Shown here piece after piece: positions 18,630-22,865 of a stretch of DNA of 64,000 nt. The position numbers were made by a program, and so were the translations under genes. Below the pieces are notes generated by a model. It was not told where the DNA came from and did not search any database. It saw only the letters and a program-made list of their open reading frames with translations. The DNA is from Thermoplasmatota archaeon (GTDB lineage Archaea; Thermoplasmatota; JAKEGO01): contig JANQNK010000001.1 in NCBI GenBank assembly GCA_028279595.1, positions 69,016 through 133,015 of the forward strand. Reading direction: 5' to 3'. The first letter of the stretch is position 1; each line of letters begins with the position of its first letter.

Positions 18630-18803
18630 TGATTGTTGATATACTTATTACAATGGAGTAACGCTAGAAATTAATCAAATCAATAATTATACTAATTCTT
18701 TGTTTTAATTCAGGCTATCGTATCCGATAACACATAATCATTAAATCCATTGTTGAATATTTATTTATATTCTAAACGGAGTCTACGTATGGGTGTTTAA
18801 AAA

Positions 18804-20402
18804 ATGGGAAGAATTGGACGTGTAAGTGAGGAGAAAATACTAAGTCTTCAAATGATTCTTTCTGAAGTTACCCGGGCTGATATTAAACCAAAGAAAGATA
18901 TTTTTTTCGTCGACCCGTACAATAACTTAAAGACTTTATCAACTCAAGCTAATCATGTCGTGTTTGGTCGCCGTGGATCTGGTAAAACGTTATTACTGTC
19001 TCAATTATTTCAAGAAAAACAAAAAAAATATCTCCCAGTTTCAATCGATTGTGAGCGGTGGAAGGAATTAACTTATCCTAATTTATTGCTAAAAATTCTC
19101 ATTGAAATATTCTCACAAATTCAAGATGAATATGAATCTAGTAAACCATCCATTATTTCCTTAAAAAAACGAAAGCGGAAACATCAACAATCGCAATTAA
19201 ATAATCTCCAAGCTGAGCTTGAGAAACGGCTCCTTGAAGCTGACGAAATTAAAGTAGATCGGCATGATGTCAAAACCGAAAAAAAACTGAGAGAATTTGA
19301 TGTCGGCCTTCAATCAAAAATCACAGGAAAAGTATCAAGGAAGAAAGCAGTTTCAGAAAAAGTCTCACGGCAATATCCGCAACACATTCTTAAAATTGAA
19401 TATCTAAATAACAATGTCGATAAATTTAGTGAAATTATATCACGTTCCGCTGAAGTTCTTCAGAAAGAATGCATTTTCCTTTTATTCGATGATTTCTACT
19501 ATATCTCAATTGATGACCAGTTTAGGATAAGCGACTTTTTACATAGAGTTTGTAAAAACACTAATATCTATTACAAATTAGCTACAATTCGACACCGCAC
19601 AACCCTATATCAAAGAAAAGCAGATAGCTACATTCAAGGAATTCAAGAAGGGGCTGATTTTATGCCTATCGATTTAGACTTTTCACTGGAAGAAGATATG
19701 GATCTCATGTTGGATTTTCTCAACGATATACTAGATCATTATTGCCAATTAACAGGAATCCATTATCCCGACTTATTTGTCGATGGTGACAATGGTGTTG
19801 GTCGCCTTATTTGGGCATCGGGTGGAGTACCACGGGATTTGTTACATATCTTTTTACAGTCATTGAAAATCATGAAACGAGATCACAAAAATCGAATTCA
19901 CAGAATTGGAAAAGACCAAATTAACGAGGCCGCATACGTATACTGCCGGAGGAATAAACTCGCAGAATTTCATACTGAGTTTGGAGATAATGAACAATTA
20001 CTATCCGCAAATAACGATCTCTTAGCCTACGTTGGATACTTAAAGCGTAAAACCGGATTCATTGTTAAAGAAACGAAGATACCAACGGAATTCCACAACA
20101 CGCTTAATATCCTTCAAGACTTGAGGTTAATTCATCTTTATGATAAAATGTTCTACTCAAAAACATATCACGACAATCCATATACTGCGTATATTCTTGA
20201 TATTGGACAATATAGCGAAATACTTCAAAGGCGAGGCCCAATAATTAAGGAATTTAATATATTACGGCATATGGATAAGTCAGGAGATAACGAATTGAGA
20301 TCTGACGCGCCCCCAGTTACTGCGGATATTATCGTTGGGATGTATGATAAGTATCTCCATGAAATCGGAATCGAACAGAAAGTGATCACAGAATTCTCCT
20401 AG
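18804..20402 (+). CDS. AAA+ ATPase, ORC/Cdc6- or Arch_ATPase-like
   Basis: Walker A VVFGRRGSGKTLLLSQL, Walker B IFLLFDDFYY, sensor-2-like WASGGVPRDLLHIF. A K/E/R-rich, probably coiled insertion lies between Walker A and B. TATA-like TATTTATTTATATTC about 30 nt upstream of the ATG. Confidence 0.7.
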   Translation: MGRIGRVSEEKILSLQMILSEVTRADIKPKKDIFFVDPYNNLKTLSTQANHVVFGRRGSGKTLLLSQLFQEKQKKYLPVSIDCERWKELTYPNLLLKILIEIFSQIQDEYESSKPSIISLKKRKRKHQQSQLNNLQAELEKRLLEADEIKVDRHDVKTEKKLREFDVGLQSKITGKVSRKKAVSEKVSRQYPQHILKIEYLNNNVDKFSEIISRSAEVLQKECIFLLFDDFYYISIDDQFRISDFLHRVCKNTNIYYKLATIRHRTTLYQRKADSYIQGIQEGADFMPIDLDFSLEEDMDLMLDFLNDILDHYCQLTGIHYPDLFVDGDNGVGRLIWASGGVPRDLLHIFLQSLKIMKRDHKNRIHRIGKDQINEAAYVYCRRNKLAEFHTEFGDNEQLLSANNDLLAYVGYLKRKTGFIVKETKIPTEFHNTLNILQDLRLIHLYDKMFYSKTYHDNPYTAYILDIGQYSEILQRRGPIIKEFNILRHMDKSGDNELRSDAPPVTADIIVGMYDKYLHEIGIEQKVITEFS

Positions 20403-20422
20403 GAATTGAAGAACTGATTAAT

Positions 20423-20701
20423 TCATGATATACCCATGATAAATGTGATAAACATAATTAATCCGCCTATTGTGACAACAATCTTGATAATTATCCAAGT
20501 CTTGATTGCACCCGCTTTAACTTGTTTAAATGTAATGGTTCTGTCCCAACTAAGGCTTGAATGACCGACCCCACCTCCAAGTTCCGACCCAAATCCAAAG
20601 TAATCAATATCTGTTAAAGAATCGCCGCTTCGGTTCAGGTCCAATGCCAAATAGTGATCATTTAACGGCAGTTCAACCTTCTGAGGTGATGAAGCATTCA
20701 T
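20423..20701 (-). CDS. small protein with C-terminal TM anchor
   Basis: 92 aa. C-terminal WIIIKIVVTIGGLIMFITFIMGI. Its start abuts the stop of the upstream 170-aa gene (shared base 20701). Confidence 0.45.
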   Translation of the reverse strand: MNASSPQKVELPLNDHYLALDLNRSGDSLTDIDYFGFGSELGGGVGHSSLSWDRTITFKQVKAGAIKTWIIIKIVVTIGGLIMFITFIMGIS

Positions 20702-21213
20702 TATACATCACTAGTGGCTTGGTTCGTTACCTGCTCGATATGTACTGGATTTATAGCTTCAAAAAACCATTGAGCATATAATCGGCCAATAAATATCGCA
20801 CGCAATCCCCTCATGAAATGATCCTTTGATAATCCATCAAAATATATCATATATCGAAACTGAATTTCTTCAATAATTAAATTCGGGTGGTTAATAATAA
20901 ATTCTGCTTGAAGGGGTAATAATTTCATTCTTAAATCGTGAATTATTCCCCATCGGTCCTGAGGGATGAGTGATCGAAATTGATCAGTCATATATTCATC
21001 AATTCTGAATGAGGTCACTAGTAACAACATGTCCTTTCTGTCCTTTGGATTCATGATAATACTCCAAAGATTAGAATCAGGCGGATGGTTAACTTTATAC
21101 TGGAAAATGGCTTCATCCACATTCATTCTTTCTAACTTCAAGTTCGTCTCTTTACACCAACGGTGAATAACCCTTCTTACATTTTTCTCACTGATGACCA
21201 ATTGATCACCCAA
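20701..21213 (-). CDS. hypothetical protein (possibly YbjN/DUF2299-like fold; unverified)
   Basis: 170 aa with a TTG start at 21213 as given in the track. No motif identified with certainty. Confidence 0.5.
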   Translation of the reverse strand: MGDQLVISEKNVRRVIHRWCKETNLKLERMNVDEAIFQYKVNHPPDSNLWSIIMNPKDRKDMLLLVTSFRIDEYMTDQFRSLIPQDRWGIIHDLRMKLLPLQAEFIINHPNLIIEEIQFRYMIYFDGLSKDHFMRGLRAIFIGRLYAQWFFEAINPVHIEQVTNQATSDV

Positions 21214-21288
21214 TGGGTTTTTTCAATTCTCTGTTTATAAAGGTAGTGTGGTTATTTGCACCCGACCTTTCTTTTCAAGTAGTACGAT

Positions 21289-22419
21289 TTATGGTCTTTG
21301 CCCGACTGCAGTTAGTGAGAGAGACGTGGTGCTAACACTTACTGTGTGATCATTCAATGAGCATTCGCCGCTGATATCAGCACCATATGCATAGGAAACC
21401 AGATCCCCCACCTCACCAAATGATATACTTGCTACTCTAGATACACAGAAGGTGCAACTAGCAATCACTCCTTGATAATCAAGTGTGTATGTTGCACAAC
21501 CTTCGATTGTTATTGACGTACAGGTTATAGTAAAGCATACATCAAGATTTATCGTATGACAGAATGTGCCAATCCTAATGGTTTTCTCTTCCCAAACAAT
21601 ATTCCACGGGATTTTAACTCGTCGACCGAGTATCTTTACTCGCTTGTAAATTACCTTAGGTACAGATATTTTTATTTTGATATCAACACAGAATTGGATT
21701 TCCATGGGAATACATTCAGAAATCGGATCCCCGCACAATGAATCTTCTAGATCGTTGACGTAATTCTCAACCCGATTCCCCAAGGAAGATCCATTTACTA
21801 GTACTTCCCCATAATGTTTCCTGGGGTTTGTTACTGCAATATTAACCACTTCTCCAGATTCAATCAAACTGGAAATCAGCCTATGGTTTGCTTTGGATTT
21901 AATTAATTCTGTCGACAGTCCATTGAGATTGGCTTCAGAAATTCTCAATCCCCCAGTCTTTAAGATATTCTGGAACTTAACTACGGTGGTTTTCCATTCT
22001 TTATTCAATTGGGAGATGCCTTGACGAGACCGTATCTTTTTCCTTCCATCCTGGAAAATGGTCTTAACTTCGTTATATCGGTAGATAACAAATGCAGTAT
22101 GAAGAATGTTCATGTATTCTTCAGGAGTAATCCCCATTTTTACAAATTGAGCAATTGTCTGCTTGCTATTGTAAATTGATCGAATTTTCTCTAGATCTTT
22201 TACAGTAAACCTCACATTTTTTATTGAGATTTTTTTATTCCTACCAACCTTAAGATCCTTCTCGGATGATGCCCACATTTGTGCGTCGTTATATACTTTA
22301 TTAAGTGAAGGAGAAGCGATAATCGGAGCACGAGTAGATATTCGCCCTCGATTTACAAAGGATGGAAGATTCCTGACATCTCTACAATTCAATCTCGGCA
22401 ATCGCGTTAATACTGGCAT
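21289..22419 (-). CDS. orphan protein with Cys-rich beta-type C-terminal half
   Basis: 376 aa. SD GAGGTGA 6 nt upstream of the ATG. The C-terminal ~160 aa have 10 Cys within alternating hydrophobic and polar strand-like segments (CVDIKIKISV, CFTITCTSITIEGCATYTL, CTFCVSRV). Confidence 0.6.
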   Translation of the reverse strand: MPVLTRLPRLNCRDVRNLPSFVNRGRISTRAPIIASPSLNKVYNDAQMWASSEKDLKVGRNKKISIKNVRFTVKDLEKIRSIYNSKQTIAQFVKMGITPEEYMNILHTAFVIYRYNEVKTIFQDGRKKIRSRQGISQLNKEWKTTVVKFQNILKTGGLRISEANLNGLSTELIKSKANHRLISSLIESGEVVNIAVTNPRKHYGEVLVNGSSLGNRVENYVNDLEDSLCGDPISECIPMEIQFCVDIKIKISVPKVIYKRVKILGRRVKIPWNIVWEEKTIRIGTFCHTINLDVCFTITCTSITIEGCATYTLDYQGVIASCTFCVSRVASISFGEVGDLVSYAYGADISGECSLNDHTVSVSTTSLSLTAVGQRP

Positions 22420-22552
22420 TTGGTCACCTCATTTAATAATAAAGAGTTATTTACTTAAAGGTTATCCATTAGATTATAACTCGGTTCATTACTTCAATCC
22501 ATTATTATTTAGGTGCAAAATGTGATAGAAATCAAGAGAATACTCGCTCTAC

Positions 22553-22768
22553 TTACCAATGAGCTTCCCGAATCTTCTTGACTTCCTTATAGATCATAAT
22601 GACACCGAATCCAACAATGAACATGAACCATAGACATAGGACCGTCCCAACAATTCCATATGCCAGGTAACATGCAAAGATCAGAATGACGTTCGCCAAT
22701 ATGAGAATGTGATTCTTCCATCGGACCAGCGATGGATGTGGTCCACCGAGCTTGTCGAGACCGAACAT
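22553..22768 (-). CDS. small two-TM membrane protein
   Basis: 71 aa. HILILANVILIFACYLAYGIVGTVLCLWFMFIVGFGVIMIY. Same strand and upstream of the 376-aa gene. Confidence 0.45.
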   Translation of the reverse strand: MFGLDKLGGPHPSLVRWKNHILILANVILIFACYLAYGIVGTVLCLWFMFIVGFGVIMIYKEVKKIREAHW

Positions 22769-22865
22769 CTAATTGAAAACAGGTGAACCGTAGTTAAGAC
22801 TTCACAACCAATTCAATTCCCTTCAATACATACACTTAAGAACTAGTACCGTCACGAGGGCCTCC

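Follow-up and report, generated by a model that had tools for sequence, protein, structure and literature searches.

The subject of this analysis is an islet of five genes with a low guanine-plus-cytosine (GC) content at positions 18630-22850 of a 64,000-nucleotide (nt) stretch, here called the window, of contig JANQNK010000001.1 of a Thermoplasmatota archaeon (assembly GCA_028279595.1). The islet is best read as a mosaic of two unrelated, independently acquired and convergently transcribed modules: a stand-alone ORC/Cdc6-like AAA+ ATPase on the plus strand (module A), and a set of minus-strand genes around a cysteine-containing protein of 376 amino acids (aa) (module B). The reason for separating the two is that neither turns up with the other. 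Relatives of the minus-strand proteins were absent from all contexts of ATPase homologues that we inspected (8 cellular and 16 IMG/VR), and none of the 58 loci of the 376-aa family contained relatives of the ATPase, DUF2299, 92-aa or 71-aa proteins. The islet is thus ordinary flexible-genome cargo, not a single new system. As a whole, the explanation that we prefer, with moderate confidence, is that of an acquired mosaic islet in which the ATPase is a candidate stand-alone defence NTPase and the module B operon may form a membrane-associated assembly. The features of the islet are as follows, with GC3 standing for the GC content at third codon positions.

18630..18803, no strand: AT-rich intergenic spacer at the left islet edge, upstream of the ATPase gene (sequence reading)
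18804..20402, plus strand: stand-alone ORC/Cdc6-like AAA+ ATPase, 532 aa (PF24389); GC3 0.31
20423..20701, minus strand: 92-aa protein, last gene of module B, with a single C-terminal hydrophobic anchor at residues 70-88 (open reading frame (ORF), hydropathy); GC3 0.37
20701..21213, minus strand: DUF2299-family protein, 170 aa, TTG start (PF10061); GC3 0.35
21289..22419, minus strand: 376-aa protein with 11 Cys, 10 of them in the C-terminal half (ORF); GC3 0.34
22424..22430, minus strand: GAGGTGA Shine-Dalgarno-like motif, 4 nt upstream of the ATG of the 376-aa gene (sequence reading)
22553..22768, minus strand: 71-aa hydrophobic protein, probably with two transmembrane (TM) segments (ORF, hydropathy), of uncertain membership in module B; GC3 intermediate, 0.53

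A preliminary description, made from the sequence alone, had noted a sharp drop in GC content between a small winged helix-turn-helix (wHTH) gene and a DEAD-box helicase gene, and this drop is real: the islet has a GC content of 0.365, against 0.590±0.035 in 47 one-kb windows outside the mosaic region at 9-26 kb, which places it about 6 standard deviations below the background. Core genes of the window have GC3 values of about 0.75-0.85, and tetranucleotide usage in the islet is anticorrelated with that in core DNA (r about -0.3) and correlated with that of two other low-GC patches, at 9837-10328 and 11828-14425 (r 0.74-0.86). GC content, GC3 and the anticorrelated tetranucleotide profile together argue for a foreign origin, so that the horizontally acquired look ascribed to the islet at the outset is borne out. 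The borders coincide with gene boundaries: on the left the stop of the wHTH gene (18629), where GC falls from 0.52 to 0.35, and on the right a point just ahead of the helicase start (22866). A search of the spacer 18630..18803 for direct, inverted and tandem repeats found none. All five ORFs lie where they had been placed and are intact, with spacers of 20-174 nt and a coding density of about 89%, and the base shared at 20701 (TAATG) and the GAGGTGA motif were likewise confirmed by sequence. Low GC is not confined to the islet, which sits in a compositionally mosaic region of about 16 kb (9.8-26 kb) between trm56 and purP; the presence of Trm56 and PurP (DUF1246/DUF1297) on the contig points to an archaeal host. 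Taken together, the islet looks like a compact stretch of DNA gained by horizontal transfer, at a variable place in an archaeal chromosome of high GC content.

All five proteins had been regarded as orphans. This may hold for the 92-aa and 71-aa proteins, which match no family in the libraries compared, but not for the 170-aa protein (DUF2299), the 376-aa protein (about 20 remote relatives) or the ATPase, which has at least 619 homologues of similar length, mostly bacterial, with 28-38% identity and nearly all with PF24389. Among these 619, the best 120 have E values of 1e-44 to 1e-76 and coverages of 82-98%. The closest one found (locus L002) is 34% identical (E 9e-76) and lies on a 28%-GC contig that carries an archaeal GatD. 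The ATPase itself passes PF24389 (ORC-CDC6-like) with 35.8 bits against a cutoff of 27 (E 5.4e-9), the model aligning with residues 34-65 only. In an alignment of 32 sequences, Walker A (G55-T62), Walker B (D229/D230) and an SGGVPRD motif (S339-D345) are invariant or nearly so, and the window protein keeps the invariant columns R56, R57, G58, G60, K61, D229, D230, G340, G341, V342, P343, R344 and D345, hence its predicted ATP-binding and hydrolysis site is intact. Between Walker A and Walker B lies a large variable insertion, and the C-terminal region looks winged-helix-like. The homology to the PF24389 members, which are found in both bacteria and archaea and span about 500-540 aa, extends over 82-98% of the protein, and they have in common its length and its Walker A, Walker B and SGGVPRD motifs; it differs from them in lying in a high-GC archaeon with no restriction-modification (R-M), toxin-antitoxin or phage gene adjoining. 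Judged by its sequence, it is a new, distant member of a known, uncharacterised family, with at most 38% identity to the members found. A literature search on Sll1717 and PF24389 found nothing.

The AlphaFold2 model of the ATPase is of good quality (pLDDT 83, pTM 0.81), less sure at the tip of a variable hairpin (157-190), and its secondary structure is compatible with a helical insertion (93-144) and a wHTH (428-465). In a Foldseek search its top matches, from E 2e-6, were PABY2304, ORC4, CED-4 and Cdc6/Orc1, followed by RdrA chains at 2e-4 to 1e-3. This is compatible with the ORC/Cdc6-like assignment made from the sequence but does not single it out: ORC4, Cdc6 and Orc1 (E 2e-6 to 4e-5) are equalled by CED-4, a STAND protein, and PABY2304, and the template modelling scores (TM-scores) are 0.3-0.55. 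RdrA was also the best sequence-profile match in the PDB (E 0.0017). Two further curated models gave matches well below their cutoffs. The Sll1717-family model NF047389 matches positions 17-380 of 454 with 46.6 bits (cutoff 75, E 2.7e-12), and the equivalog model DS41_1 (NF053860) matches positions 33-210 of 448 with 35.8 bits (cutoff 370, E 4.6e-9). The Sll1717 model is matched, below its cutoff, by 31 of 32 members of the ATPase family, and DS41_1 by 24 of 32 (best 2.3e-13), which suggests that the family is a remote sister of both.

These comparisons place the ATPase near several known defence proteins. DS-41 ('AAA2'), found with DefensePredictor, is an anti-phage system that consists of one P-loop protein of about 500 aa and protected E. 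coli MG1655 from phage; homologues are reported as far as Halobacteria (PMC13092281). The window ATPase resembles it in being a single gene of similar size and P-loop/AAA type, but the partial, low-scoring match to its model makes it a remote relative and not a member. In BREX and related systems, ATPases of the ORC/Cdc6 clade with winged helices behind them are found repeatedly, as BrxC, BrxD and DUF499 (PMC12839542). Judged by its predicted structure, the window ATPase may share with these proteins, and with RdrA of RADAR (PDB 8hr7-8hrb), an AAA+ core with an insertion that follows strand 2, as well as a helical lid and then a winged-helix-like region; they differ in their size (830-1300 aa) and in belonging to multi-gene systems with a methyltransferase, PglZ or deaminase, whereas the islet has no such partner. 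Archaeal Orc1/Cdc6 initiators have a similar overall fold (Foldseek, 2qby_B E 7e-6 and 1fnn E 4e-5), but the window ATPase has no match to the TIGR02928 initiator model, no origin-like repeats lie nearby, and its family is largely bacterial and horizontally mobile. The PADLOC route opened by the preliminary description led nowhere: with PADLOC-DB v2 the ATPase gave insignificant matches only (PDC-M28C, E 0.001; mad8, 0.026), and none of the four minus-strand proteins gave a match.

The genomic contexts of the ATPase relatives were taken from eight cellular loci with precomputed Pfam annotation and 16 IMG/VR contigs, a small sample without a background rate. An R-M, toxin-antitoxin or defence neighbourhood was present in seven of the eight cellular loci, which are listed here.

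L002: RE_Bsp6I directly upstream of the ATPase; insertion sequence, Dcm, Vsr; 28%-GC contig with archaeal GatD
L004: directly upstream of the ATPase, a MutH-type endonuclease, Dcm, Vsr and DndB
L170: PIN/MazE toxin-antitoxin pairs and an MmeI-type R-M enzyme
L171: without defence genes
L172: ATPase followed by Bse634I and Dcm; Fic, AAA_14/DUF4143 and AbiEii close by
L173: YoeB/Phd, SLFN_AlbA_2, ParE and transposases
L176: MazG-like protein, SLFN-type helicase and Mrr
L177: methyltransferase, ATPase and HinfI endonuclease, separated by 5-nt gaps

Defence or mobile-element neighbours were confirmed in seven of the 16 IMG/VR contigs with an ATPase homologue; these neighbours comprise terminase, portal, P2-type gene A, integrase and relaxase genes, a pentapeptide-TIR gene and a HEPN gene. 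Some of the homologues have terminase and portal, or P2-type gene A and portal, on either side. The contexts have no conserved partner in common. The observations support the view that the ATPase family is typical of defence islands and mobile-element hotspots, and a spread of contexts without a fixed partner is what characterises an accessory gene of defence hotspots that is mobile and sufficient by itself. The defence-island signature claimed for the islet therefore survives in part: the ATPase family is associated with defence and has remote kin in DS-41, but the ATPase and the minus-strand genes do not co-occur in the contexts inspected and so probably do not make up one system.

Two arrangements among these relatives deserve mention for themselves. 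At L177:1547-5762 an N6/N4 DNA methyltransferase and a HinfI-family endonuclease flank the homologue (33% identity to the window protein, 91% of its length aligned), placed as if it were the third subunit of a type II R-M operon; a comparable abutment occurs with RE_Bsp6I in L002 and with Bse634I in L172. At L159:3968-10646 and in L163 the homologue stands between the P2-type replication gene A and the portal gene, an interval that we take to be a known hotspot of defence cargo in P2-like prophages.

The minus-strand genes converge on the ATPase, the stops of the ATPase (20402) and of the 92-aa gene (20423) being 20 nt apart. Between the 71-aa and 376-aa genes there are 133 nt, between the 376-aa and DUF2299 genes 75 nt, and base 20701 belongs both to the stop of the 170-aa gene and to the start of the 92-aa gene in a TAATG overlap. 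Because of the common strand, these short gaps, the overlap and the Shine-Dalgarno site, we read the 376-aa, DUF2299 and 92-aa genes as an operon, perhaps with the 71-aa gene upstream. None of the results ties this operon to defence or to a mobile element. The 170-aa protein matches nearly the whole of the DUF2299 domain (PF10061, structure 3CXJ), covering profile positions 2-136 of 138 with 72.3 bits against a cutoff of 22.8 (E 4.4e-20), and aligns over residues 14-152 with PDB 3cxj (1.6e-12), the source of which is presumably Methanothermobacter thermautotrophicus. It differs from DUF2299 proteins generally in lying in foreign low-GC DNA and in being translationally coupled to a tail-anchored protein of 92 aa. 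A literature search on DUF2299 returned nothing. The C-terminal anchor predicted for that 92-aa protein is there, as a hydrophobic segment at residues 70-88. The 71-aa protein is indeed hydrophobic, but its two TM helices come from reading the sequence, and the hydropathy scan gives one long hydrophobic stretch peaking at residues 39-57. Neither small protein has a Pfam, PHROG, NCBIfam or PADLOC match, a result that applies to these libraries and not to any deeper homology search.

The 376-aa protein is the more unusual item of the islet. It matches no Pfam family, and word-index searches with it returned only itself (with the family alignment, one member more). An exhaustive phmmer search of 1.8 billion representatives yielded about 20 full-length representatives with 22-27% identity (E 2.7e-13 to about 1e-4), by which it is classed as a divergent member of a rare family found mostly in bacteria. 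The family alignment has a helical N-terminal half and a Cys-rich C-terminal half, with about 20 Cys in the consensus and 11 in the window copy, from which many conserved ones have been lost. An AlphaFold2 model built from the family alignment (pLDDT 85, pTM 0.81) consists of a helical bundle (73-188) and then an all-beta domain with predicted strands of up to about 30 residues. Nothing significant was found in the PDB and BFVD, either with this fold or by profile. The list of insignificant PDB matches is topped by aerolysin, lysenin, LIP, Dln1 and Cry51 (best E 0.02, probability 0.14, TM-score about 0.1), and the resemblance to pore formers can serve as a lead only. Two assignments of this protein were considered and rejected: a capsid (double jelly roll) or levivirus maturation protein, for which the BFVD and PDB matches are insignificant with TM-scores of about 0.1; and a halocin-C8-like precursor, which has no Pfam support.

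The bacterial relatives of the 376-aa protein come in a different setting. A metagenome scan yielded 67 loci of the family, 58 of them with a copy that the window protein detects (E≤0.01, most 4e-20 to 1e-5), and partners were counted with neighbour hidden Markov models (HMMs) in the 37 loci that have at least 900 nt downstream. A DUF1360-like gene with three TM segments (PF07098; phrog_781) follows downstream in 33 of these 37, and a gene of about 85 aa that starts with a CCGQP motif follows directly on the same strand in 36. A convergent gene for a tail-anchored protein of 55-75 aa with an F.C.G.GC motif was found in 8 loci of the family. The flanks are ordinary chromosomal genes, by eye ClpB, aminopeptidase N, MetH and DapD, and not defence islands. 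The cassette of a Cys-rich protein of about 375 aa, the DUF1360-like protein and the CCGQP protein is thus near-obligate in bacteria (L007-L073, e.g. L046:10004-11692 and L071:9974-11760), and we note that all four cassette-associated proteins, including the tail-anchored one, carry Cys motifs. Its first gene product aligns end to end with the 376-aa protein of the window, where two small same-strand genes also follow and a tail-anchored protein is also present. The partners are nevertheless non-homologous: an HMM search of the window in six frames found no DUF1360-like or CCGQP gene, and hhalign comparisons of the cassette partners with the 92-aa, 71-aa and DUF2299 proteins were negative. From these two results we conclude that the copy in the window no longer has the DUF1360 and CCGQP partners of its family and is coupled instead to DUF2299 and a tail-anchored protein. 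Besides the lost Cys, it differs from the bacterial copies in an insertion of about 24 aa in the first long hairpin, and it is the only copy of the family that we found in an archaeal context.

How the preferred explanation might work can be outlined by analogy. The ATPase may act alone as a nucleic-acid-sensing defence NTPase. Its winged helix could bind foreign DNA or a replication or packaging intermediate, as we suppose from the ORC/Cdc6-clade ATPases of BREX and RADAR; by the same analogy it might oligomerise on ATP and would then block the invader directly or via host factors. For module B, our best guess, weakly supported, is that the 376-aa protein would be anchored or counteracted by the small membrane proteins within an assembly at the membrane.

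Several points weigh against this explanation. One of the eight cellular contexts, L171, has no defence genes, and since R-M genes directly adjoin several homologues, the family may depend on such partners, which are absent at the islet. The defence role of PF24389 is that of a candidate: no curated model assigns the family to defence, the matches to DS-41 and Sll1717 score far short of the respective cutoffs, and the closest PADLOC match, PDC-M28C, has an E value of 0.001. Convergent neighbours in a uniform 4-kb patch could have arrived together, and their composition cannot show separate acquisitions. Finally, the idea of a membrane assembly draws, weakly, on predicted TM segments and on insignificant Foldseek matches to pore formers (E≥0.02).

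Two bolder readings, one for each module, are in our view doubtful. In the first, the 376-aa family would be a new membrane-active family, with a helical regulatory head and a pore-former-like body of long beta hairpins, that works in a cassette with dedicated membrane partners, and the archaeal copy would have swapped DUF1360 and CCGQP for DUF2299 and a tail-anchored protein, an exchange of partners across domains of life. In the second, type II R-M systems would have a so far unrecognised accessory in the PF24389 ATPases, one that depends on ATP and is also able to act alone.

The islet could also be the remnant of an integrated archaeal plasmid or virus, the ATPase being its replication initiator and the minus-strand genes its leftover structural or membrane genes, which we consider unlikely. 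Orc1/Cdc6-type initiators are common on archaeal mobile elements, and this, together with the low GC, the genes without assigned function and the small membrane proteins, speaks for a remnant. A search of virus and plasmid collections gave a divided answer: ATPase homologues occur in the 16 IMG/VR contigs and in one INPHARED record, a prophage, which also fits a remnant, but the ATPase matched no PLSDB plasmid, and the 376-aa and DUF2299 proteins have no homologue in IMG/VR, INPHARED or PLSDB. The hallmarks of integration are missing as well. The window contains no tRNA gene and gave no Rfam match, none of the five islet proteins has an integrase or recombinase Pfam domain, repeats resembling att sites at the islet edges occur at chance level only, and there are no tandem or origin-like (ORB-like) repeats near the islet. 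The TIGR02928 orc1/cdc6 initiator model does not match the ATPase at E≤0.1 and matches one of the 32 family members (8.4e-4), and the family is mostly bacterial and found inside R-M operons. The BFVD fold search, which gave nothing significant, counts against a viral remnant too. Nor does anything look degraded, given that the ORFs are intact and tightly packed at the coding density stated above, and the degraded integrated element suggested in the preliminary description finds no positive support. Its caution that neither this interpretation nor a defence island was established was right.

That all five genes form a single abortive-infection or defence system, in which the ATPase senses infection and then switches on effectors that disrupt membranes, namely the 376-aa protein and the small membrane proteins, strikes us as very unlikely. 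The foreign composition common to all five genes, the defence association of the ATPase family, the two predicted membrane proteins and the very long beta hairpins of the 376-aa model, with aerolysin-family proteins at the top of its insignificant Foldseek matches, would fit such a system. Against it stands the lack of co-occurrence: no partner is constant among the ATPase homologues, relatives of the minus-strand genes never accompany them, and the 376-aa family lives in housekeeping neighbourhoods with other near-obligate partners. Furthermore, the convergent orientation implies separate transcription units, and PADLOC recognises none of the four minus-strand proteins. An equally improbable idea is that module B, unrelated to virus defence, encodes a toxin or bacteriocin that contains Cys and is secreted (a halocin-like precursor), along with small membrane proteins that confer immunity, as the two-domain architecture with its Cys-rich C-terminal domain, the adjoining small membrane proteins and the pairing with a DUF1360 membrane protein in the bacterial cassette might suggest, but neither the window copy nor its relatives have a signal-like N-terminus on sequence reading, no Pfam family matches, the halocin families included, many of the conserved Cys are gone from the window copy, and neither a processing site nor a transporter is evident.

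The genes that border the islet, both outside it, are the following.

18240..18629, plus strand: small winged-helix protein of the left flank, 129 aa by the gene caller, with a weak DUF6293_C wHTH match (2e-4); GC about 0.5
22866..24395, plus strand: DEAD-box helicase of the right flank (PF00270, 1.4e-54; PF00271, 3.1e-35); native GC, GC3 0.72

The helicase ends in a tail of about 120 aa in which Gly, His, Lys, Arg and Ser abound. Searching 185,579 species genomes with it gave 80 DEAD-box loci, all bacterial, with 38-58% identity, and its best matches come from Desulfobacterales and other Deltaproteobacteria (55-58% identity) despite its native GC. Clustering at 90% identity left all islet proteins and the helicase as singletons. 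A single related contig was found (L178, 6.8 kb), with 68-80% nucleotide identity over iPGM-TPR-PurP. It keeps the synteny of these three genes and differs in gene content between PurP and the ortholog of a 217-aa gene of the window: at L178:4439-6818, compared with window positions 24451-25971, the 222-aa gene beside purP is replaced by three genes of lower GC (92, 119 and 152 aa), and the next gene past the replaced segment is the ortholog, 51% identical to the 217-aa gene. The neighbourhood is therefore variable. As the contig covers the purP-side segment and stops before the helicase, this supports a second variable spot near the islet and bears on the neighbourhood, not on whether the islet itself is absent from relatives.

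On the other side, the wHTH gene is divergent from a gene for an HTH-STAND-TPR protein at 15410-18142 (minus strand), and a second one lies at 11828-14425 (minus strand). Both are HTH-STAND(ATPase_2)-TPR proteins, 27% identical over 821 aa; the gene at 11828-14425 has the same foreign-like composition as the islet (GC3 0.33), whereas that at 15410-18142 is near-native (GC3 0.61). Between them, at 14644-15345 (plus strand), a gene encodes a very acidic 233-aa protein with a signal-like hydrophobic N-terminus and no Pfam match. An isolated gene for a 163-aa protein at 9837-10328 (plus strand) has a GC3 of 0.36, no Pfam match on record and a tetranucleotide profile correlated with that of the islet (r 0.74).

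These results leave the current understanding unchanged, and their value is that the "orphan" label is removed and that the block is resolved into two modules, not one system. The 376-aa family has a confident predicted fold that has no match in the PDB or BFVD, and in soil bacteria it belongs to a three-gene cassette that is near-obligate, with partners that the archaeal copy shows to be exchangeable. For the ATPase, the repeated placement of its relatives in R-M operons points to a functional link. If it is indeed a defence gene, a widespread family of single-gene NTPases would extend to archaea of high GC content, a group with few tested defence genes.

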